57,888 nt of DNA from an uncultured bacterium (GTDB taxonomy: Bacteria; Fidelibacterota; UBA2242). The DNA lies in NCBI GenBank assembly GCA_964485745.1, contig CAZAKO010000002.1, forward strand, positions 1 through 57,888, given 5' to 3'. A program made the position numbers and the translations under genes. A model generated the notes under the pieces. It did no database searches. It was not told where the DNA came from and saw only the letters and a program-made list of their open reading frames with translations. How positions within the stretch are numbered: position 1 is the first letter of the stretch; every line of letters begins with the position of its first letter. This document shows positions 1-57,775 of the stretch, in pieces.

Positions 1-1459
1 CAACTTTGATCTCCTTCATCACCGGGTTATACTGCTCCTGCTTGTCAAATGTAAATGGTTCATCCAGTGAAGCAAGATTTATCAATTGGATTTCGGCTTT
101 CCCTTTAAACATACCTGAGGTGCTAAATATGTCGGCGGTTATGGTTTTGTCCTTGTGGCGATTCACAACATTGATAAAAACTGTATTTGTTGCTTCATTG
201 TACACGGTGGTAACATCCAGGTAGGGGATGCCTTTATACTTCTCCGTATTAAAAGTATCGCATTGAACATATGTGTCAACTGCATTGCCGCGACAGTTAA
301 CTGAGAACAATTTGAACGTCTGAAACAGCGGCGATTTAAAACTTCCTTTTTCCCGGTCGGTACTCAGCAGGGAAGTCGCCATTGTAAAGTTGGTCATCTT
401 AACAACATCGGCATGTCGAATAAAGGAATTCAGACATTGGGCAACTGGCAGAACGGATCGAAAATTTCTGCCGAAAGTTCCCCACTCATCAAATGAAATG
501 TAAATGGGATTGGTAAAGCCTTTCATGGCTCTTATGGCTTCGATTTGGGCGGCTGGGATTCTGATCTTTTCTTCGAAATCCATCGCGCTTTGCCCCATGA
601 AAGTATAATAGTCAGGTGAGTTTTCCCAGTAGCGATGAATGGAAATATAATCGATCACATCGCCCAGTACCGTCAACACTTTCCGGTTCCATTCAACCCA
701 CTGACCGGTAGGTTCATAGTATGATGAGCCGGAAGCGACTAATTTAATGGTGTTGTCTACCGATCGCATCGCCTTGGCGGCTTCCCGGGCAATCTTGACG
801 TAATCCTCGGCGCATTTATAACCCAGTTCCCAGGGCGCGCCGTCAACTTCATTACCGAGATCCCAGATTTTTATGCCATACGGTTTTGGATGACCATTCT
901 TAGCGCGTAGATCAGAATAGTAAGTTCCTTTCTTATAGTTGCAGTATTCAACCCAATAACAAGCATCCTGGATTGTAGCCAGTCCCAAATTCACACAGAT
1001 GACATTTTCACTCCCGATGGTGTTATTTAACGCAATCCATTCATCCGTACCGACATGATTGTTCTCGATTCCACCCCAGGCGAGGTTGATCCGCGTCGGG
1101 CGTTGCGCCTTCGGTCCGATGCCGTCCTGCCAGTTATAGCCCATTACGAAATTGCCGCCCGGCCAGCGCATGTTGGTTATTTTTAATTCCTGCATTGCCT
1201 CAATATAATCTTTCCTAAAGCCGTTTTCATCGGCAAGCGGCGAGGACGGATCATATAAATTTCCATATAGGGTATTGAATTCTGCTGTATCCGGTAAACC
1301 CATTCTCCTTCCGCTAAAGTGGATCGGCTCCATAAATACGCCATAGATTTTCGGATCAATCGCCCCGATTGTTCGCTCAATATCAATTTTGATTGTTGCG
1401 GTTTGAGAGGATAAGATCGTAGAAAGTGCAACCAGTAAGGTAACAAGCAATTTTTTCAT
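1..1459 (-). CDS. abfA: GH51 alpha-L-arabinofuranosidase, truncated by the window edge (C-terminus missing)
   Basis: Absent from the supplied ORF track. ATG at 1459-1457 is preceded by GGGAG, and the reverse frame stays open to position 1. My translation starts MKKLLVTLLVALSTILSSQ (signal peptide). It contains 'MRWPGGNFVMGYNWQDGIGPKAQRPTRINLAWGG' and 'IKIWDLGNEVDGAPWE' (acid/base Glu motif), both typical of GH51 AbfA-type enzymes. Confidence 0.8.
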   Translation of the reverse strand, partial: MKKLLVTLLVALSTILSSQTATIKIDIERTIGAIDPKIYGVFMEPIHFSGRRMGLPDTAEFNTLYGNLYDPSSPLADENGFRKDYIEAMQELKITNMRWPGGNFVMGYNWQDGIGPKAQRPTRINLAWGGIENNHVGTDEWIALNNTIGSENVICVNLGLATIQDACYWVEYCNYKKGTYYSDLRAKNGHPKPYGIKIWDLGNEVDGAPWELGYKCAEDYVKIAREAAKAMRSVDNTIKLVASGSSYYEPTGQWVEWNRKVLTVLGDVIDYISIHRYWENSPDYYTFMGQSAMDFEEKIRIPAAQIEAIRAMKGFTNPIYISFDEWGTFGRNFRSVLPVAQCLNSFIRHADVVKMTNFTMATSLLSTDREKGSFKSPLFQTFKLFSVNCRGNAVDTYVQCDTFNTEKYKGIPYLDVTTVYNEATNTVFINVVNRHKDKTITADIFSTSGMFKGKAEIQLINLASLDEPFTFDKQEQYNPVMKEIKV

Positions 1460-26391: not shown

Positions 26392-28332
26392 CTATTTTAA
26401 CAACAACATCTTCTTAGTACTATGATACGATCCTGCTTCTATTTTATAAAAATATACTCCACTCGGCAGATTGGAGGCATTGAATTGGAGTGAATGACTA
26501 CCTGCATTTTGACGTCCATTGACCAGCGTTTCGACTTCTTTTCCCGTTATATCGAATATCTTCAATATCACAAAATCATTTACTGGTAATAGATAGCTGA
26601 TGTTGGTGATTGGATTAAAGGGATTGGGGTAATTTTGATATAAACGATATGATTGAGCGATTTGAGTGTTTGCTTCATCATTCACTGCGACATAATTATC
26701 CCCACCTTCTATCATTATCATCTGGACTGACCTGGCGGGTGAAGCAAATTTAATCTCAGTTTCGATTGGGTAGGCATTCGCCGGAATATCCAATAGCTCC
26801 TCATAAGGTCCCCAATGGTTTGCATCCGGTCCGTATCCGTTGATGAAAACATTCGGCGAAAAGTCGCCACCATCTGTTCCGCCTATAAACGAGTAAATAT
26901 AATAATTTTGACCAACGCCGATCGACTGCAAGCTAATGCCGACAACCTCATCTTCAGTCCCTTTGTTTACAATAACCACCGCAGTTTCACCGGACGAATA
27001 TCTTGAAGCATAACTGAGTATATCGGTATCAGATGAAACCGCAGAAATGGCATGATCACCATAAAATTTTTGCAGAAAAGTTAGATAATAAAAGTCCGCG
27101 TGGGGATGATTTAAATAGTTAGGATCAGAACCACCATAAAACATGGTTGATTCGCCGGAAATCAGCAGCCATCTTGCAGCTAATCCATAATTGTTTTTTA
27201 TCATTTCACAAATCAGAACAACAGCCTGCATGCCATTGATATAAGATATTTGCTGAGCGACGGGTGCATTAAAGTGCATATTGTACTCGGTTAAAGCGAT
27301 CGGTTTGGGATAGGCACTTCTATTGGTGAAATCCTTCTTTAAATAGTCGATGTCCCTTTTAGGTTCGGTTACAGCAATACTCAAGAGCGCTGGTACCGTA
27401 TATGAAGAACCGAAATAATTATGAATAATATAAAAGTCAGCTTTATCGCCCACCTCTTTAAAGAATCCTTCGTTCCACGTTCGATCCACAAAATTCCAGC
27501 TTGTGGGTCCGTCAATGACAACCTGTCCCCCAATGTAAATATCAGTTCCAATCTCCTCCGCGGCTTTTCGCATTGAATCGGCAAAGACTTTGAAGTGCTT
27601 TCCGTATAGTGCGCCTGAAATAATTTGCGGTTGTCCGTCTTTATTCAACGCTGTATCAATCATCCAGCCATATTCCCACGGACCGCCGTTCTCATTGCCA
27701 ATTTCCCAAAACTTAGTTTGTCCGTCATCATAACGTACCCAGTCAGCGGCAAGATGGGCAGCTTTAGCTACCGGATCCGTGCTGGTTCCATAACGCGCAT
27801 ATCCGTAATTAATTGTGATTAATCCTTCAGCAACATCCGCATTATTACGAAGCTCATAATACTGGTCGCGTGTAGTTTGCCACCCTCCAACTCCTGTTTG
27901 TCCCCAAAATTTGTTTTTCTTTGCAGTTTTAGTGGTACTGTTATAGGTTGTCCCGTCATAAATTGAATCCGGAACATCGCTTGGTACACCATTCCAAAAA
28001 TACCCGTTTGACCAACTTCCACCAGGAAAACGAATAAGAGTCGGGGCCAGCCGCCAAATACCTTCGACTAATGTAGGATTATTATGGGCACCGGCCCAGG
28101 CGGCGATGGCATTCCCAAATACATATTTGGAAATTCTTCCAAGAGTGTCACTATTTAAGGTAACTGCGACTGAGGCTGGATTAGTAGGTTTTACAGCAGC
28201 AACTGCTTGAGGTATCTCCGCTGTCTTTGATCTGAAATCATCAAGGAAACAATTCTCAGCATTCTGTCCAAAAAGGTTAGCATTAATCAGGAATATCGTT
28301 CCGATAAAAATCAAATAAATTATTTTTTTCAT
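26392..28332 (-). CDS. Clan GH-A-like (beta/alpha)8 glycoside hydrolase, family unassigned, with T9SS sorting domain
   Basis: Signal peptide. 'LIRFPGGSWSNGYFWNG', 'KFWEIGNENGGPWEYGW' (candidate acid/base Glu) and 'PIALTEYNMHF' (candidate nucleophile Glu). Beta-sandwich region, then '[18 protein letters not shown]...GVYFYKIEAGSYHSTKKMLLLK'. Confidence 0.6.
   Translation of the reverse strand: MKKIIYLIFIGTIFLINANLFGQNAENCFLDDFRSKTAEIPQAVAAVKPTNPASVAVTLNSDTLGRISKYVFGNAIAAWAGAHNNPTLVEGIWRLAPTLIRFPGGSWSNGYFWNGVPSDVPDSIYDGTTYNSTTKTAKKNKFWGQTGVGGWQTTRDQYYELRNNADVAEGLITINYGYARYGTSTDPVAKAAHLAADWVRYDDGQTKFWEIGNENGGPWEYGWMIDTALNKDGQPQIISGALYGKHFKVFADSMRKAAEEIGTDIYIGGQVVIDGPTSWNFVDRTWNEGFFKEVGDKADFYIIHNYFGSSYTVPALLSIAVTEPKRDIDYLKKDFTNRSAYPKPIALTEYNMHFNAPVAQQISYINGMQAVVLICEMIKNNYGLAARWLLISGESTMFYGGSDPNYLNHPHADFYYLTFLQKFYGDHAISAVSSDTDILSYASRYSSGETAVVIVNKGTEDEVVGISLQSIGVGQNYYIYSFIGGTDGGDFSPNVFINGYGPDANHWGPYEELLDIPANAYPIETEIKFASPARSVQMIMIEGGDNYVAVNDEANTQIAQSYRLYQNYPNPFNPITNISYLLPVNDFVILKIFDITGKEVETLVNGRQNAGSHSLQFNASNLPSGVYFYKIEAGSYHSTKKMLLLK
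26395..26637 (-). other. T9SS type-A C-terminal sorting domain (domain of the unassigned GH)
   Basis: 81-aa tail, very similar to the GH127 tail at 22059-22301. Confidence 0.85.
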
Positions 28333-44411: not shown

Positions 44412-45545
44412 TCATGGATTATACCTCGACCCGAGAATCAATTTATCGCCGGAATCATCAACCTCATAAAGTTGCGGTTTGCGAGGACCTCTCTCCTCAG
44501 CATGATGGATGATGAATAACCGTTTTCCTTCAAAGGTTGTAAACAACATGCCATGCCCGGAATTGTCTCCCTTGAAAGCTTCCGGTTCCTGAACCCAGGG
44601 GCCTTTGATGCTTCCTGATTCGGAATAAGCGATACCCTGCGCATACCGGTGTTCGCCCCAGCTCGACCAGAGCATCCCGAGCTTGCCCGTCTGTGTGCGG
44701 AACAATTGCGGGCCATCGGTTACCCAGCCGGGCATCTTCATGCCAAAGGTGGCTTCGCCAATGCTGTTCATCTCTTTGGACCATACCGCTTCACTGGCAC
44801 GGAAAATCGTGGTTGGCTCGGCAGTACGATGGGTTAGATCCTTGGAAAGCGGCATGTACGCCATGGTACCGTCAATGAGCTGCGTCCACTCGTGAACGAA
44901 AACCATGTAGGTTATATCATGCTCTTGATAGATGGTTCCATCGATAATATCCCAGTCTCCGGGACCGAGATAAAAATCATACTCCTGCACCAACGGTTTG
45001 TAAAGTCCTTCAGGAGAATCGGATACCAACAGCATGGTTTGGTTCAAAGGCACGTTATACCGGCGCGGGACCGCTTCAATCAATGTAGTGTGATCGCTCC
45101 ATGTACCGGCCAAATAATATTTATCCCCAAATTGGTGTATTTCGGCGGCAGCAACCCAAAGGCTGTCCATCCAGGTGCCTGTGAGATCGATAATCTTGTA
45201 AGGGCCCGTCCACATTTTCAGATCTTTGCTTTTGTATAATCGACCGCCTGTGCCTGTCAGATAATACGTCCTGGTTTCTTGATCAGGAAAAACGAAGGGA
45301 TCGCTCATGGATATTTCATCCAAGGAAACCGTTTTTATTTCCGGTTCCGGGCGTGCTGGCCATGGCAATCGTTTTGTTTTTGTGGTGCCGACATTACGTA
45401 TCCTTCCGAAAGTATTCTGTCCCGGATCGGCAAGAGACGCCTGTTCTCCCGGAACAAGTTGTTTTTTTTCTTGTGCCTGAGCGGTGTTGGTTTGTACCAC
45501 ATTAAAAACAAGCAGGATTGCAGTAAAAAAAGTGATTTTCTTCAT
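44412..45545 (-). CDS. GH43 arabinofuranosidase/arabinanase-type glycosidase
   Basis: 'SMSDPFVFPDQETRTYYLTGTG', 'WVAAAEIHQFGDKYYL' and 'GHGMLFTTFEGKRLFIIHH'. ATG 45545 gives the signal peptide MKKITFFTAILLVFNVVQTNTAQA. The 78-aa extension in the track overlaps the upstream gene and has no signal peptide. Confidence 0.8.
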   Translation of the reverse strand: MKKITFFTAILLVFNVVQTNTAQAQEKKQLVPGEQASLADPGQNTFGRIRNVGTTKTKRLPWPARPEPEIKTVSLDEISMSDPFVFPDQETRTYYLTGTGGRLYKSKDLKMWTGPYKIIDLTGTWMDSLWVAAAEIHQFGDKYYLAGTWSDHTTLIEAVPRRYNVPLNQTMLLVSDSPEGLYKPLVQEYDFYLGPGDWDIIDGTIYQEHDITYMVFVHEWTQLIDGTMAYMPLSKDLTHRTAEPTTIFRASEAVWSKEMNSIGEATFGMKMPGWVTDGPQLFRTQTGKLGMLWSSWGEHRYAQGIAYSESGSIKGPWVQEPEAFKGDNSGHGMLFTTFEGKRLFIIHHAEERGPRKPQLYEVDDSGDKLILGSRYNP

Positions 45546-45612: not shown

Positions 45613-47904
45613 TTAATTGCCCTTGGACAATTGTTGAAACAGAGCAGGATCGAACTCCTCCAGACCGGTGATGCTAACCAGGTGGTTGACCGAAACCCAC
45701 GGCAGCCAGAACCGGTGCCCTCCGACACCGCGACCGGATCGGCCCGGTCCCATGCGCCAGCCTTCCTGTTGCCATCCAACCCCTCTCATATCATACTGGC
45801 GACCTGGAAGAGCAACCATGGATTTGGTGGCATGCAACAGAACCCGCGCGACATCGAGATAATGCGAATCATTTGTGTATTTGTATAGTTTCGCGTAAGC
45901 GGGTGCGGACCAGTCCAGATATTCATCCACGCCGCCGACTCCGCGGGCCGTGATTCCCTGAACACCGATGGTCGGCACGCCTTTCTTCCAGTGGAGATGT
46001 GCATCGTCTGCGTCAACCGGCATGGGCAGATTCCAGATCCACATCCAGGTCTCGGTATAGTCCGCTGCGACTTGCGCGCGTTCCAGCCATTTGGATTCCC
46101 GGGTCGATTCATACAGACTCAGGAACGCTTCCAGACTCAACATTCCGGCTTCTTTATCGGTGATATTGGGATTGTCGCTGGCACCGCCGACATAGAATCC
46201 CCGCTTCCCAAAGTTATCCCAAACATATTCCGCAGCATGGATGGCAGACTGTTTATACTTCGAATCACCGGTTTCTTCAGTCATCAGAATGAGCAGCGGC
46301 ACGGGACAGTAACTCACCGTTCCCGTCGTTTCTACGACAACACTACTTCCGGATTCCCACCGCCGAGGAAAGGAACCATCCTCACGTTGCTGCAGGATCA
46401 GCCAGTCCACGTAATTCTTGACCCAGCTATACCATTCGGGATGTTCCCGTCCCAGAGCATGCTCGCGCCGGTATGCCCGCATCAGCACGCGCATGTCTTC
46501 CGTGGCGTTACGCAACCAGGGAGCGAGCCACTCCTGCCGGTCACCCGTCCAGGGTTTTCCAGTAGCCAGATCGTACCCGGTCGCCTGAAGCGGCACGGCG
46601 GGAAGCGCCTGAATCATTGATGAGATGATGGATAATCCGATGGCACGCATTTTTTGTCCACGTTCGCTCGGGTCGTGATCTCCTTCTCGCAATAGCTGAT
46701 CCGCACACTCGATGTTCTTGCTCACGAAACCCATCGCGGCCATCGTCCAATTCCATTGAGGCGCGTTCGTATCAAATGTGGCGACCGCAAACGGAATGGC
46801 GGTGCGGCCATCAATAGTGGCGGCCTGAGCGGCGAGGTGATCGAGCAGAATACGGCGCATCTGCTCGACGTCAATGGGAGCGACGGCGGGCTTCAACGTG
46901 CCCCAAGCCCAGCGCCACACGTTTCGCGTCATATTGCGGAACGATTCGTCGCGTCCAAATCGAAAATTCACTTCGTAACTGTGAGCGACTCCCTGCACAA
47001 TCGGATGAAAGCGGCGAATCCATCGAGACTCCGTCGGTGTATTCGGGCCGAACGCGTACATGGTCATTGTGCCGGGAAACTGGAAACCAAACTCGATTGG
47101 ATGTCCGTCCTCCTGCCATGCCCCTAAAGCGCCGAATTGAAACCGTGCATCGGTCATCACCTCTTGCGAAAGCTTGGTTTCCTCAACAGTCGATTCGCCT
47201 CGTGGCAAAGGATCCAGCATTGTTACCGAGGAACCGTTGTTGAAAGAGAGTGCGAATAGGGGGGCCGGGAGCATATCTTCACGGAGAAGGAAATGTCGAG
47301 CCGCATAATTCAGTGTGCCACCGGGAGAACGGTCGCCATTATAGGTGGGATCCCCGTACAATGCACCCGGAGCCAGGCAATTCACATCAGACCAGCAGAC
47401 GGAAGGGTCAATCTCAAACACGATAGATGAATTGAAACCGCCCGGAGCATTGCCCGTCACTTCCACTTTCCGGTGCACCGAAAGCACAGCGCCTGTCAAA
47501 CTCCATGTGTCATGTACATGAAAAACGACATTTTCGCCATACGCGATTTCGGCGCGGGCGTTGATTCCTGAAGCCGATTTCTGGACTGTTGTGTATCCGG
47601 CTGCAAATTCGCGAAGGGCATCGTCTTTTTGCATGACCTCAATCTGCACAGGTTTCAGTTGTGTCAGGCTCGGTGTGGCGCCGCCGGAGATTTCGATGCC
47701 CCATTCGTTTCCTGCCGTGCGGATAAATGTGATCGTCGCCCCGGTCTGCAAACGTCCAAGGTTCACTCGATCGCCTTGCTGTGCAAACACGGCCGAACTC
47801 AGCAAACATAATCGAAGAATTAGATATTGGCTAAACGCCTTTTTACTTTTTTGATATAAAAACTCACTCAAAGTTTTTCCGTGATTTCCGATTTTTATAT
47901 CCAT
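45613..47904 (-). CDS. Secreted protein of unknown function (beta-rich N-terminal half plus helical-repeat, (alpha/alpha)6-like C-terminal half)
   Basis: Long intact ORF. Hydrophobic signal 'LILRLCLLSSAVFAQ'. I recognise no family motif. The track start 47910 is TTG; the first ATG is 47904, 13 nt after the GH3 stop. Confidence 0.7.
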   Translation of the reverse strand: MDIKIGNHGKTLSEFLYQKSKKAFSQYLILRLCLLSSAVFAQQGDRVNLGRLQTGATITFIRTAGNEWGIEISGGATPSLTQLKPVQIEVMQKDDALREFAAGYTTVQKSASGINARAEIAYGENVVFHVHDTWSLTGAVLSVHRKVEVTGNAPGGFNSSIVFEIDPSVCWSDVNCLAPGALYGDPTYNGDRSPGGTLNYAARHFLLREDMLPAPLFALSFNNGSSVTMLDPLPRGESTVEETKLSQEVMTDARFQFGALGAWQEDGHPIEFGFQFPGTMTMYAFGPNTPTESRWIRRFHPIVQGVAHSYEVNFRFGRDESFRNMTRNVWRWAWGTLKPAVAPIDVEQMRRILLDHLAAQAATIDGRTAIPFAVATFDTNAPQWNWTMAAMGFVSKNIECADQLLREGDHDPSERGQKMRAIGLSIISSMIQALPAVPLQATGYDLATGKPWTGDRQEWLAPWLRNATEDMRVLMRAYRREHALGREHPEWYSWVKNYVDWLILQQREDGSFPRRWESGSSVVVETTGTVSYCPVPLLILMTEETGDSKYKQSAIHAAEYVWDNFGKRGFYVGGASDNPNITDKEAGMLSLEAFLSLYESTRESKWLERAQVAADYTETWMWIWNLPMPVDADDAHLHWKKGVPTIGVQGITARGVGGVDEYLDWSAPAYAKLYKYTNDSHYLDVARVLLHATKSMVALPGRQYDMRGVGWQQEGWRMGPGRSGRGVGGHRFWLPWVSVNHLVSITGLEEFDPALFQQLSKGN

Positions 47905-47917
47905 GCGCAAACGCGGT

Positions 47918-50527
47918 TTATTGAACCATGATTTTTATTATTTTTAAATCTTTTGCATCCGAGCTGGAACCATACAGAACCTCATATTCTCCAGAAGTGA
48001 CAGCCATATTACCACTTGCTCTATCGAAAAACTCGAACGATTTATAAGGCAGATCAATGATCGCTTGATTTAATTTTCCAGCGGCAACATCAACCCGTTG
48101 AAAGCCCCTTAAGGTTTTTAGTGGTCCGTCGGCATCGTTCACTTTACGCACATAAACCTGAACGATTTCTGTACCATCGCGTTTGCCGGAATTCTCTACA
48201 GGAATAGTGATGGTGATACTTTCATTGCTTTTGATTTTGGTTTTACTGATTTTTGCTTTGCCGATGGAAAAAGTAGTATAACTTAATCCGAAACCAAAGG
48301 GGAACAGTGGATCGGACATAAACCGGTAAGTGCGGCCTTTCATGGAATAATCTTCAAAATCACCCAGTTGATCAATGTTTTTATAAAAAGTGACGGGTAA
48401 TTTGCCGGATGGATTGTAATCGCCAAATACAACATCGGCTACTGCTTGCCCGCCGAATTCACCACTGTACCAGGCTTGCAGAATGGCATCACAGGTTTCA
48501 GTCTCGGGCACCAGTCCAATCGCCGAACCGGAACAATTCACAAAAATGATTTTCTTCCCGGCCTGTTTTAAAGCTTTCAGGCAATCTCTCTGTATTTCAG
48601 GAAGTTCAATATTTGTGCGATCGCCACCCTTGAAGCCGGGCAGCTCGACGGGCATTTGCTCGCCTTCCAGTCGGGAAGAAATACCGCCTGCGAAAATGAC
48701 CACATCAATTCCTGCCAACTTTTTGATGAGATCGTCAAATTGCACTGGAACTTCCTTGCCAAAATTCAGACTCAGGCTGGCAGGCCAGCGACCTATTTGT
48801 CTGAAACGCGCTTCGATTTTATATTCTTTGCCTTTTTCAACGTTTAATGGGAGACGAATCGTGCGTGGTCCAAACCTGACGGGCTTGTAAAGAGTATCGC
48901 CATTCACAATAAGTTCGAACCTTCCCCGCGGCTCGACTTTGAATACAAGCTCTCCTGATTCTGAGGTCTTGTAGACGGTTTCGTATTTACCGGAAAAACC
49001 CTCCAGAGTCACCCCCGGCGCAAATTCATGTTGTCCCTCCGTGGTCAGTTGGATAGGTTGGGTCATTTGTCCGGTGAATATACTCTCTCCTTCAAAATCG
49101 CGATTATTCCAATAAGTCGCTTTGATGCCCGGTTGACCATCGATGGCGCATGCGGGCACTGCGGTTTCGATGTACATTTTATCGGTCAGGTCGCATCCCC
49201 GGTCATATACAATCTCTTGGTCGGCGAGTTTGGTTTGTATGCCATTCAAAATCGTGATGGTATGAATGGGTCTGCCATTGTAATTTCCCCACAGCATTCG
49301 TTCATCATTTGCGTTAGGACCAATTACCGCAATCTTTTTTATGGACTTGGATAAAGGCAAGATGTTGTTTTTGTTCTGAAGGAGGGTCATGGTTTCCCGC
49401 GCCATGTCCAAAGCCAGTTTTTTGTGTTCATCACAATTGAGCACTGACGCCGGGATTTTTGTCCAGGGAACCAAGGCGTCGTCGTCCATCTCTCCTAAAT
49501 CGAAACGTCCGATCAAAATCCGTCTTAAACTTTTATTGATTTCTTCTTCGTCGATCAAGCCTCTTTCAACCGCTTCTGGTAACAGTTTATAAGCTGGACC
49601 GGCGCACTCCACATCCGTTCCTGCCAGAACCCCTTTGGCGGCCGCCTGGATTGGATCTGAGGAAACTTTGTGGCTGTTATAGAAGTCCGAAATTGCGCCA
49701 CAATCCGAGACCACAAGATACTTGAACCCCCATTCATCCCGCAGGATATTTTGAAGGAGTCTTGTGCTGCCACAGCAGGGTTCATCATCCAGACGTTGAT
49801 AAGCGCACATCACCTCACGGACGCCCGCATCCTGAACAAGAGACTTGAATGCCGGAAGATAGGTTTCCCATAAATCCCGAGGATCGAGGTCGTTGATGTT
49901 CATAGTATGACGGCTCGGTTCAGGTCCCGAGTGAACGGCAAAGTGCTTGGCACAAGCTAAAAGTTTTTTATATCTTGAATCAGGGTATCCCTGCAGTCCT
50001 TTGACGACAGAAATACCCATCCGAGACATCAGGTAAGGATCTTCGCCGTAGGTCTCCTGACCGCGTCCCCAGCGAGGATCACGAAAAATATTGATGTTGG
50101 GAGTCCAGACCGAGAGACTTAAAAAACGTCGATTTTCCATCCCTCTTTTTTGCGATTCGTTGTATTTGGCTCGTACTTCATCAGAGACGGCATTGAAAAT
50201 TTGAAAAACCAATTCATCATCGAATGAAGCTGCCATACCAATAGGTTGGGGGAAGACGGTGACACTGTCATTGTTTGCCAGACCATGCAACGCTTCGCTC
50301 CACCAATTGAATTTTTTTATTCCAAGGCGTGGAATAGCGTCCGATACATCACACATCAAAGTGGCTTTTTCTTCAAGTGTCAACCGTGGAATTAAATCTT
50401 TCGCCCGCTCTTCGGAGCTTAGCTCAGGATTCTGATAGGGCAGTTGCTGTCCCAGCAAATTGATCGAAAATAGGAAAATCGCGATAATAATGAACTTTTT
50501 CTTTAAAATATCTGGTAATAATCTCAT
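47918..50527 (-). CDS. GH3 exo-glycosidase with PA14 insert; paralog of 32094-34703
   Basis: 'LTLEEKATLMCDVSDAIPRLGIKKFNWWSEALHGL' and 'LVVSDCGAI', with a PA14-like insert ('ATYWNNRDFEGESI'). Collinear with the other copy along its whole length. Confidence 0.85.
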   Translation of the reverse strand: MRLLPDILKKKFIIIAIFLFSINLLGQQLPYQNPELSSEERAKDLIPRLTLEEKATLMCDVSDAIPRLGIKKFNWWSEALHGLANNDSVTVFPQPIGMAASFDDELVFQIFNAVSDEVRAKYNESQKRGMENRRFLSLSVWTPNINIFRDPRWGRGQETYGEDPYLMSRMGISVVKGLQGYPDSRYKKLLACAKHFAVHSGPEPSRHTMNINDLDPRDLWETYLPAFKSLVQDAGVREVMCAYQRLDDEPCCGSTRLLQNILRDEWGFKYLVVSDCGAISDFYNSHKVSSDPIQAAAKGVLAGTDVECAGPAYKLLPEAVERGLIDEEEINKSLRRILIGRFDLGEMDDDALVPWTKIPASVLNCDEHKKLALDMARETMTLLQNKNNILPLSKSIKKIAVIGPNANDERMLWGNYNGRPIHTITILNGIQTKLADQEIVYDRGCDLTDKMYIETAVPACAIDGQPGIKATYWNNRDFEGESIFTGQMTQPIQLTTEGQHEFAPGVTLEGFSGKYETVYKTSESGELVFKVEPRGRFELIVNGDTLYKPVRFGPRTIRLPLNVEKGKEYKIEARFRQIGRWPASLSLNFGKEVPVQFDDLIKKLAGIDVVIFAGGISSRLEGEQMPVELPGFKGGDRTNIELPEIQRDCLKALKQAGKKIIFVNCSGSAIGLVPETETCDAILQAWYSGEFGGQAVADVVFGDYNPSGKLPVTFYKNIDQLGDFEDYSMKGRTYRFMSDPLFPFGFGLSYTTFSIGKAKISKTKIKSNESITITIPVENSGKRDGTEIVQVYVRKVNDADGPLKTLRGFQRVDVAAGKLNQAIIDLPYKSFEFFDRASGNMAVTSGEYEVLYGSSSDAKDLKIIKIMVQ

Positions 50528-56029: not shown

Positions 56030-57775
56030 TTAGTCTCCCAGCCAGGCAGAAAGATTTTCCGCGGGAATCAGGATCCTGGCGATGTTCGGTCCCTGCCATG
56101 CGACGGATAAATTGTCGCCGCCACCACCTTCTTTTTGAACTGCTTCGATATAATAGAATTTCCCTGCTTCCAGTTGAAAATTAGCAGAATGCTGGAAGGT
56201 AAATTTACTGTATTCCTGATAGTTGGTCCATTCATCAACTCTAGCAATTAATGTTTTTTGGTTCGGATTCTCGTTCATACTAAGATAGAGCTGGGAAGCA
56301 TCATCGCTTGCGATCCAGAAGGAATAGGTGCCGCTGGTGTCCGGACGAACGTATCCCCTTAGACGCGACCCATAATTATCACCAAAGGCCTGCGGTCCAT
56401 TCAGCTGCTTAATGTATCTCCTGCCAGTCGGAAAATCCGGGAATCTCGGATCGGAAATTAAATTGCTTATTGACGTTCCAGGCATGTCACTCCACCATTC
56501 ACGAAGAATAAACCCAGTGTAGGATTGGACGGCGTGAACCACAATGGTATCCGCAAATTCGTTAGCCGTATCCCTGACAATTAAAAGCGTATTGCCTTCG
56601 GCCTGAGCAAGGAGAACGGCGTCAGGATAACCAGCTGCAACCGGCTCGATGTCCACAATTTCCGGATCCGCACAAGACCACTCATACATTGGAGCGGCAT
56701 TTCCACCTTGGGATAAAGCCTTCACTGTTCGGGGCACGTTTACACCGATTATCAAGGTGTCGATTCCCCCCGGTTCAGCCGGCAACCAGTTAACAGTTAT
56801 CCCCGTTTCCAAATCCTCAAATTGGCTCGCATCAAATGAGTTTTTCAGCGTGGCACCTGGTCCATTATAGGCATTGGCAGAAATGGACATTTCAACTTCC
56901 TGTGCATCCGTTCCTCTCAATGAAGATTGATAGGAGATCCAGTAATAACTATCCGCAAATTTGGCGATTGCTGCCTGGATTTTGGTGAAAACTTCGGCAA
57001 GTTGACTCGCATCAGAGACGACAATCCATCCACGATTTCCAGCCCGATTCAGGAAATCCTGATCTAGGTCACTGCCAAGACCGATTGTGTAGACGTTGGC
57101 TAGCTGGGAGGTATAGATGACCTCTTCTTTGCTCTTTTCATTTTCGGTGTCATCCCCGGCAGTAAAGACCACCAAATTCCCCTGCTGAACGACTCCCAGA
57201 TTGTAACCCTCACTGTACAGATTTAATCCGCGCGAGATGGCACCGTACAGATTTCTCTCTGACGAACCAGCTACGATCCCCTCAATTGCACTAATCAATT
57301 GGTCGAGGTCACCTGTAAAATCTTGAACCATGTTCAATGTTTTTGAAAAAGTATAAATTGCGATGGACTGCATTGGATCAAGATTACTTACAAATGCCAG
57401 AGCGGCTTCTTTTAAGGCATCCAGACTGACTCCCGTGCTGATATCCAACAGCAAGACTGTGTTCAAGCGGTAGTCGAACGTATTCCGCTTACGGACTAAC
57501 AAGGCTACCTTTTTCGGATCGATGGACACTCCGTTTTCCTTGATTGAAAAGCGGTCCACGGTTAATAAATCCGCTGCCATGCCGGAAGTGTCGAGTACAT
57601 TACAGAACAGGTGCACTTCATGCGGAGGAGAGGTCACTACACCATGTGACAGGATGATATACATGCCCACATCCGGGACCGGGTTCTGATCTTCGGGCCC
57701 TACATTATCGCCCTTGTCACACCGGATGGAGCAAAGGGTCACAATGACCAGGATAAAAAGAATTGCATTTCTCAT
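56030..57775 (-). CDS. Secreted or lipoprotein VWA-domain protein with BIg2-like and C-terminal PA14 domains
   Basis: Signal peptide MRNAILFILVIVTLCSIRC. VWA core 'NTVLLLDISTGVS...IAIYTFS...LVVFTAGDD...VYTIGLG', where the MIDAS reads DISTG rather than DxSxS. BIg2-like 'VKALSQGGNAAPMYEWSCADPEIVDIEPV'. PA14 'FGDNYGSRLRGYVRPDTSGTYSFWIASDDASQLYL...GKFYYIEAVQKEGGGGDNLSVAWQGP'. GGAGG is upstream of the ATG. Confidence 0.75.
   Translation of the reverse strand: MRNAILFILVIVTLCSIRCDKGDNVGPEDQNPVPDVGMYIILSHGVVTSPPHEVHLFCNVLDTSGMAADLLTVDRFSIKENGVSIDPKKVALLVRKRNTFDYRLNTVLLLDISTGVSLDALKEAALAFVSNLDPMQSIAIYTFSKTLNMVQDFTGDLDQLISAIEGIVAGSSERNLYGAISRGLNLYSEGYNLGVVQQGNLVVFTAGDDTENEKSKEEVIYTSQLANVYTIGLGSDLDQDFLNRAGNRGWIVVSDASQLAEVFTKIQAAIAKFADSYYWISYQSSLRGTDAQEVEMSISANAYNGPGATLKNSFDASQFEDLETGITVNWLPAEPGGIDTLIIGVNVPRTVKALSQGGNAAPMYEWSCADPEIVDIEPVAAGYPDAVLLAQAEGNTLLIVRDTANEFADTIVVHAVQSYTGFILREWWSDMPGTSISNLISDPRFPDFPTGRRYIKQLNGPQAFGDNYGSRLRGYVRPDTSGTYSFWIASDDASQLYLSMNENPNQKTLIARVDEWTNYQEYSKFTFQHSANFQLEAGKFYYIEAVQKEGGGGDNLSVAWQGPNIARILIPAENLSAWLGD

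Follow-up and report, generated by a model that had tools for sequence, protein, structure and literature searches.

Several families of carbohydrate-active enzymes join a beta-sandwich to an (alpha/alpha)6 barrel. It is found in the glycoside hydrolase (GH) families GH116, GH52, GH63, GH15 and GH94, among which GH116 and GH52 include beta-xylosidases. This architecture has also been described for polysaccharide lyase (PL) family PL27 (PMC8377490), which includes the L-rhamnose-alpha-1,4-D-glucuronate lyase BACCELL_00875 (PDB 5NOK/5NO8). In this study, a stretch of 57,888 nucleotides from an uncultured bacterium of the Fidelibacterota (assembly GCA_964485745.1, contig CAZAKO010000002.1; the whole stretch is called the window) was analyzed for a gene at positions 45613 to 47904 of the minus strand, whose product of 763 amino acids (aa) had been flagged, in an earlier note made from the letters alone, as a candidate new glycosidase or lyase. 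With a probability of roughly 55%, this protein works in the periplasm as an exo-acting glycoside hydrolase on decorated arabino/glucuronoxylan oligosaccharides, and represents a six-hairpin family that is unclassified. It is best described as belonging to a large uncharacterized family within the known six-hairpin glycosidase/lyase class, and this family is a good candidate for founding a new one in CAZy. For this judgement, Pfam, NCBIfam release 20 (June 2026), PDB entries to 2026, the names given at source and the literature served as proxies for CAZy membership, and all of them were negative.

The open reading frame (ORF) starts with an ATG at 47904 and ends with a TAA stop at 45615-45613. 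The gene is clearly real, since a 99% identical protein (P0001) is present in ENA, more than 1000 homologues exist, and the mean column identity among 41 relatives is 79%. The parts of the gene on which the argument depends are the following, where AF2 denotes AlphaFold2 and pLDDT the predicted local distance difference test score.

45613 to 47904, minus strand: complete gene of the unassigned 763-aa protein (ORF and translation; database protein P0001 99% identical)
47782 to 47904, minus strand: putative signal peptide, aa 1-41, with predicted cleavage between VFA and QQ (translation; low-pLDDT helix 13-41 in the AF2 model)
46954 to 47769, minus strand: predicted N-terminal beta-sandwich, aa 46-317, galactose-mutarotase-like (AF2 strands with pLDDT >90; no Pfam match)
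47257 to 47283, minus strand: N-domain loop REDMLPAPL, aa 208-216 (R208, E209 and P215 at least 90% conserved family-wide)
45625 to 46941, minus strand: predicted C-terminal (alpha/alpha)6 six-hairpin barrel, aa 322-760 (AF2 helices; Foldseek; sub-threshold Pfam matches)
46357 to 46392, minus strand: motif QQREDGSFPRRW, aa 505-516, within the long loop that follows helix 489-504 (Q506, D509, G510 and R514 invariant or near-invariant)
46144 to 46176, minus strand: motif DNPNITDKEAG, aa 577-587, which continues into helix 584-601 (alignments; local hhalign to the GH127 of the window)
45925 to 45927, minus strand: D660, directly preceding helix 662-677, on the same side of the barrel (alignments and AF2 model)
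45763 to 45765, minus strand: E714 (invariant in alignments A3, A4 and A5; at least 90% conserved in A2, which covers 23-83% identity)

A first AF2 model, built from a shallow alignment of 41 sequences that were 72-83% identical (A1), had a pLDDT of 70.7 and disordered conserved loops. It was replaced by a model from 52 sequences of 24-83% identity (A5), which reached a pLDDT of 91.9 and a predicted template modelling score (pTM) of 0.90. In the latter model, the protein folds as a beta-sandwich followed by an (alpha/alpha)6 barrel, in which the helices from 397 to 751 form hairpins with short and long connections in alternation. Foldseek was searched against the PDB to April 2026, and the 50 best matches were listed. 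The N-terminal domain matched the mutarotase-fold proteins 4rnl, 1snz and 3k25, and the hairpin barrel, together with a probability of 1.0 to many six-hairpin enzymes, assigns the predicted fold to the six-hairpin (alpha/alpha)6 class. The top match for both models was the PL27 lyase BACCELL_00875 (E 2e-7 and 1e-9), followed by GH116, GH63, GH94, GH15 and GH52 enzymes (probability 1.0, E 1e-8 to 1e-6). However, the two-domain matches as a whole had identities of just 7-11% and global template modelling (TM) scores of 0.22-0.34, and thus the modelled protein would belong to no solved family. For GH116, GH52, GH63, GH15 and GH94 the TM scores were 0.22-0.31, and the catalytic residues of these enzymes were not mappable onto the 763-aa protein. 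The beta-xylosidases of GH116 and GH52 would suit a xylan setting. The barrel alone superposed on GH76, GH88 and the epimerases of the N-acylglucosamine 2-epimerase (AGE) superfamily with TMt values of 0.54-0.70, but AGE epimerases and isomerases, GH76 and GH88 lack the beta-sandwich domain, and the sequence scores below their family thresholds. Family GH139 (BT0984, SDT91673.1), whose three-dimensional structures were reported in 2025 with a GH95-like -1 subsite (PMC12282258), was considered and dropped once it proved to be solved and GH95-like. It was absent both from the 50 best Foldseek matches and from the PDB sequence matches, the presence of its coordinates in the searched PDB being unconfirmed, and the hhalign comparison with the GH95 of the window was negative.

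Sequence searches led to a similar picture, and the protein fell into no Pfam, NCBIfam or PDB family. The Pfam matches were all weak and all to six-hairpin models. PF07944 (GH127 catalytic domain, DUF1680) scored 22.9 bits on the full-length protein against a cut-off of 24.9, and 25.1 bits on the C-terminal domain alone. This match joins aa 669-693 to profile positions 183-207 of 376, which is a single 25-residue helix and not the full length expected of a GH127 member. PF07221 (GlcNAc 2-epimerase) scored 19.5 bits on the full-length protein and 21.2 bits on the C-terminal domain, both under its gathering threshold of 23.4, so that membership of the AGE superfamily was not supported either. 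Sub-threshold traces of GH88, LanC and GH76 models were also seen; scanned alone, the N-terminal domain gave no Pfam match at all, and none of the Pfam models of GH116, GH52, GH63, GH15, GH65, GH94 and GH95 matched the protein at E<=1. No NCBIfam model matched it. Nothing significant was found among all PDB chains by phmmer or by hmmsearch with the family profile, the best profile match being a 30-residue helix of YihS-type isomerases (E~0.02), and PL27, whose members include BACCELL_00875, BT0263 and BACFIN_07013, was absent at E<=10 from both searches, which included 5NOK and 5NO8. Comparison by hhalign of the family profile with the GH127 of the window gave a probability of 11.9% and no meaningful homology, the region of DNPNITDKEAG being aligned locally, with low probability, to the GH127 stretch 'NDNLDNKHANTQ'; with the GH95 of the window, the probability was 0.3%. 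A literature search found no description of the family. The earlier note had quoted six peptides, all of which occur in the translation, had read a signal peptide at the N-terminus, and had predicted a beta-rich N-terminal part and an (alpha/alpha)6 C-terminal part for a protein that it could not place in any family. Each of these statements agrees with the present results, including those of the Pfam search that it had proposed.

Of the competing explanations, the one that survives best is that the protein is an ordinary member of an existing CAZy GH or PL family of known activity, for which there is neither a Pfam or NCBIfam model nor a solved structure. CAZy adds several families yearly, and among the homologues some are already tagged as PF07944 (GH127) by precomputed annotation; the GH127 and GH146 beta-L-arabinofuranosidases do share the fold at the level of the Pfam clan, recur as a weak match at one hairpin helix (YxKLYxYTxDxHYLDVA), and, like the 763-aa protein, occur in arabinose-rich loci, a true GH127 being present in the window. 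Nevertheless, this explanation is unlikely. Every named homologue is called 'hypothetical protein' at its source, also by the RefSeq annotation pipeline PGAP in Deinococcus aetherius and Bacteroides finegoldii, and neither NCBIfam, the PDB nor the literature offers a relative. The resemblance to GH127 comprises 25 of 376 profile positions at 22.9-25.1 bits and an hhalign probability of 12%, and GH127 enzymes lack the N-terminal beta-sandwich. Moreover, GH127 enzymes have a conserved cysteine nucleophile and a Cys/Glu zinc site, as established for HypBA1. In the family-wide alignments of the 763-aa protein, no cysteine was found among the invariant or at least 90% conserved columns, C400 and C533 being conserved only in the group of more than 72% identity. 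On these alignments, GH127-type chemistry appears to be excluded for the family, because it has no conserved cysteine.

The family is large and widely distributed. The best 120 homologues are 72-99% identical to the 763-aa protein. When 1.84 billion cluster representatives (50% identity) were searched with the profile, 1522 sequences passed E<=1e-3, of which 387 also passed E<=1e-30; a homologue search seeded with distant members yielded 11 proteins only. In the species-representative genomes of GTDB, a single peptide pattern hit 223 stretches that code for a relative. From these, 80 loci were retained, and they represent at least eight phyla, namely Bacteroidota, Ignavibacteriota, Acidobacteriota, Planctomycetota, Verrucomicrobiota, Gemmatimonadota, Chloroflexota and Proteobacteria (the proteobacterial carrier is Novosphingobium gossypii, of which DSM 29615 is in culture). 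Orthologues in loci L007 to L086, across Pirellulales, Solibacteraceae, Bacteroidales, Ignavibacteriota and Verrucomicrobiota, were observed to be about 63-76% identical over about 740 aa. Such identity is unusually high across phyla and suggests that the gene, or the whole cluster, has been transferred horizontally between them.

The identities to the 763-aa protein are bimodal, falling at 40-55% and at 60-80%. In at least 8 loci, a paralogue of about 790-800 aa (45-50% identical) lies upstream of the orthologue of about 740 aa in the same orientation, mostly immediately (L003/L041 7578-9944, L007 4582-6954, L014 7453-9849, L024 2808-5165, L029 7474-9906, L051 4117-6435 and L011 6405-8804). 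This tandem arrangement suggests that the family holds two functionally distinct subfamilies. The paralogue is absent from the window, where a GH3 gene occupies its position.

Domain fusions and gene neighborhoods indicate what the family does. Pfam scans of 16 long family members showed that distant or long members are fused to carbohydrate-binding modules (CBM9, four to six copies of CBM32, RicinB/CBM13 and NPCBM/CBM51), to Laminin_G_3 and SLH domains, and to C-terminal tails of the type IX secretion system (T9SS). Furthermore, ORFs were called in 86 loci and clustered by BLAST, and the clusters were named from the Pfam annotation of the window and from Pfam scans of representatives. Within three genes of a homologue, the most frequent neighbors were CE1-like and other carboxyl-esterases (35), an unassigned clan-A-like TIM barrel (16), GH51 (14), GH54 (14), SASA esterases (12), GH43 with CBM32 (11), GH3 (10) and beta-helix proteins (8), followed by GH97 (6), GH29 (6), tannase/feruloyl esterase (5) and GH31 (4). 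GH95 also occurs in these neighborhoods, a GH67 alpha-glucuronidase stands beside homologues in 5 of the 86 loci, and independently Pfam-annotated contigs agree with this picture. A survey of homologous neighborhoods had been recommended in the earlier note; from the fusions and the 86 loci, it indicates that the family is carbohydrate-active. As read from the domain annotation, the neighborhood has the signature of a feruloylated, acetylated arabino/glucuronoxylan, with some arabinogalactan- and xyloglucan-type enzymes mixed in.

Two further proteins were observed in these loci. The second commonest neighbor, of about 411 aa (L067 12437-13672 and 21 further loci), has very weak Pfam matches to GH5 and GH113 (clan GH-A TIM barrel) and looks like another unassigned candidate glycosidase family. 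In addition, a secreted protein of about 237-242 aa without a Pfam match adjoins the GH43 plus CBM32 gene in L041 (19830-20543), L001, L005, L006 and L012; in three of these loci (L001, L005 and L006) its gene separates the orthologue from GH43. The window lacks it, and only 67 nt lie there between the 763-aa gene and GH43.

The alignments locate conserved acidic residues, another step that the earlier note had called for, at D509, D577, D583, E585, D660 and E714. The residues conserved family-wide are D132, R145, Y183, R208, E209 and R298 in the N-terminal domain, and R465, W491, Q506, D509, R514, D577, D583, E585, W606, W620, D660, E714 and W736 in the C-terminal domain. In the AF2 model, the conserved residues of the C-terminal domain lie in long loops or where helices 464, 584, 662 and 735 make their first turn, and R465, Q506, D509, R514, D577, D583, E585, W620, W624, D660, E714 and W736 all belong to long inter-hairpin loops or helix N-termini. 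They would therefore share one face of the barrel, the face on which six-hairpin enzymes have their active sites. The motif containing D577, D583 and E585, which are conserved family-wide including the remote Bacteroides homologue, probably provides the best candidates for the catalytic acid/base, and D660 is a second candidate. For E714, no acid is aligned in the remote B. finegoldii protein. The REDMLPAPL loop of the N-terminal domain, of which ED..L.APL is retained even in that homologue, probably reaches into the active-site funnel of the barrel. In the proposed mechanism, acid/base catalysis would be carried out by carboxylates of the long-loop face, namely D583/E585 of DNPN(I/V)xDKEAG with D660 or D509, and the N-domain loop RED(R/M)LPAPL would complete the sugar pocket.

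The remote B. finegoldii homologue (WP_055279373.1) has only 20% identity to the 763-aa protein, yet it is recovered by hhalign with a probability of 99.9% (E 6.5e-33) and keeps the motifs RED.L.APL, GR.HPEW, Q..DGSFPR, D.N..DKEA and W...W.VP as well as an Asp equivalent to D660. The possibility that this plasmid protein is the published PL27 enzyme BACFIN_07013 was rejected, for it has no PDB sequence match at all. It is placed, on its sequence, as a remote member of the superfamily of the 763-aa protein. An annotated 'FAD-dependent oxidoreductase' is also found near its gene.

A second informative homologue is encoded by Deinococcus aetherius on pDAETH-1 (L090, 490662-492836; WP_264777570.1). 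It is 40% identical and cytoplasmic, having no signal peptide, and its operon also encodes a DUF4432 epimerase-like protein, a sugar ATP-binding cassette (ABC) importer, a 548-aa unknown protein, an FGGY kinase, a short-chain dehydrogenase/reductase (SDR), a PF12831 FAD oxidoreductase, a PTE-family protein, a 2-keto-3-deoxy-6-phosphogluconate (KDPG) aldolase and a SIS protein. This operon is an uncharacterized sugar catabolic route in a culturable organism.

The location of the 763-aa protein was read from its N- and C-termini. The N-terminus has a basic stretch, KSKK, followed by the hydrophobic core YLILRLCLLSSAVFA and a cleavage site between VFA and QQ, and it reads as a signal peptide of the signal peptidase I type with no lipobox. 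The Pfam scans detected no T9SS C-terminal tail (Por_Secre_tail) on the 763-aa protein, yet four other proteins of the window carry one, which argues for a periplasmic location. According to the alignment consensus, the N-termini of the homologues begin about 20 residues downstream of the annotated ATG, so that the annotated start (47869-47904) was observed to add about 11-20 residues relative to them. An alternative in-frame TTG lies at 47871, from which the signal peptide is more typical (MSEFLYQKSKKAF...), and it is possible that this is the true start. The signal peptide is kept whichever of the two starts is used.

As to the role of the protein, the absence of a T9SS tail and the position of the Deinococcus homologue beside a sugar ABC importer suggest action at the level of oligosaccharides. 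Taken together, the GH67 genes beside homologues, the presence of a GH5 in the window, and the Deinococcus homologue, with its importer and without a signal peptide, suggest that the protein acts on imported oligosaccharides as an exo or debranching enzyme, and not as an endo-xylanase or a replacement alpha-glucuronidase. The earlier note had suggested that the protein might supply an endo-xylanase or alpha-glucuronidase activity missing from the locus. The same three observations weaken this suggestion, a substitute alpha-glucuronidase in particular losing ground to the GH67 genes found in 5 loci, and it is unlikely that the protein is either enzyme. Instead, a periplasmic exo-acting hydrolase would remove a specific decoration, or split a specific linkage, in oligosaccharides derived from decorated arabino/glucuronoxylan, with the GH3, GH43, GH51, GH31, GH95 and GH97 enzymes and the feruloyl and acetyl esterases of the same array as its partners.

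Several observations weigh against this reading. The best structural match of the protein is a lyase and not a hydrolase, and the pocket geometry and the clustering of residues were derived from predicted secondary structure. The assignment to xylan is one of guilt by association, and the array of the window also contains enzymes typical of arabinogalactan and xyloglucan degradation (GH42, GH2, GH127, GH29 and GH39). Neither substrate nor specificity is uniform across the family, since neighbor sets differ between subfamilies: sulfatases surround members of about 41% identity (L076, L077 and L085), and the B. finegoldii homologue belongs to a GH2/GH130 cluster, in which GH88 and GH43 flank it.

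Some of these points favor a PL27-like poly- or oligosaccharide lyase, which would act by beta-elimination next to a uronic acid, for example the (4-O-substituted) glucuronic acid on the side chains of xylan or arabinogalactan. Beyond the two-domain layout and the Foldseek ranking, both proteins are enzymes that are secreted and that Bacteroidota-type bacteria encode in plant-glycan loci, and the invariant R145, R465 and R514 could neutralize a carboxylate. In addition, the B. finegoldii gene directly follows that of a GH88 unsaturated-glucuronyl hydrolase, and the SDR and KDPG aldolase of the Deinococcus operon are as in uronate catabolism. Nonetheless, lyase action seems rather improbable. 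The superposition on PL27 has TM scores of just 0.27-0.34 at 9-11% identity, with a root-mean-square deviation of about 16 Å, and among the PDB chains no PL27 sequence is matched by the family profile up to E<=10. Moreover, the neighborhoods are dominated by exo-glycosidases for neutral sugars and by esterases, and the closer subfamilies lack an unsaturated-uronate hydrolase partner; a search within 10 kb revealed no GH88 homologue at any of the 86 loci. A non-hydrolytic six-hairpin protein, be it an AGE-type epimerase or isomerase, a GH94/GH65-like phosphorylase or a non-catalytic glycan binder, is very improbable, for although AGE-type epimerases and isomerases are the best superposition partners of the barrel (TMt 0.60-0.67), the GlcNAc 2-epimerase model (19.5-21.2 bits) and the YihS-type helix give weak matches, and GH94 and GH65 phosphorylases are among the two-domain Foldseek matches, all such Pfam matches are under threshold, the many invariant carboxylates on one barrel face speak against a pure binding role, and a secreted protein whose relatives carry CBMs, SLH domains and T9SS tails would be unusual among epimerases and phosphorylases, which work in the cytoplasm.

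More widely, the 763-aa protein and its approximately 1500 clusters may tentatively be regarded as a new, unclassified CAZy family (GH, or less likely PL) with a new heteroxylan activity and at least two subfamilies that often occur in tandem and have spread between phyla by horizontal transfer; we rate this wider proposal at somewhat less than an even chance. Such an activity might, for example, remove one particular linkage in the oligosaccharide side chains of feruloylated glucuronoarabinoxylan. Few plant polymers are as abundant and as recalcitrant as the complex xylans of cereals and grasses, and to our knowledge the enzymes for several xylan side-chain linkages are still undiscovered. 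The family is a concrete and cheap target for finding a missing xylan activity, being large, strongly conserved and distributed across phyla, and standing consistently beside arabinofuranosidases, xylosidases, alpha-glucuronidases and feruloyl and acetyl esterases in soil, sediment, digester and gut bacteria. A defined activity, if found, would found a new CAZy family, would improve the annotation of thousands of metagenomic 'hypothetical proteins', and could provide a debranching enzyme for cocktails used in biomass conversion and prebiotic production.

In the window, the 763-aa gene is tightly packed between two co-directional genes.

47918 to 50527, minus strand: upstream neighbor, GH3 with a PA14 insert, 13-nt gap (Pfam scan; ORF ends at 47918)
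44412 to 45545, minus strand: downstream neighbor, GH43, 67-nt gap, ATG at 45545 (Pfam scan and start check)

These distances are those given in the earlier note. A 455-aa GH43 ORF with a TTG start, which would overlap the 763-aa gene, was discarded as a mechanical artefact. The window consists of one co-directional array of GH3, GH95, GH43, GH29, GH2, GH127, GH5, GH39, GH42 and GH51 genes, together with GH31, GH97, AXE1 and many esterases. Domain scans covered 29 ORFs of the window with 200 aa or more as well as the end-truncated ORF and revealed no GH10, GH11, GH67 or GH115 domain, as had been stated before, and the GH5, which is exported by the T9SS, could be an endo-cleaving enzyme. The 763-aa protein had also been called the only large ORF of the cluster that could not be placed. 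This does not hold, because a second one, of 646 aa at 26392-28332 (minus strand), has Por_Secre_tail as its sole domain and no catalytic-domain match in Pfam even at E<=0.1. At 2-1459 (minus strand), an ORF running off the start of the window, with 486 aa visible, has a signal peptide and matches to Alpha-L-AF_C and ASD1_dom, and by these domains it is assigned as an additional GH51-like gene. At the upstream end of the array, a protein with VWA and PA14 domains (56030-57775, minus strand) shows no obvious enzymatic identity and might serve as an adhesin or a glycan-binding component.

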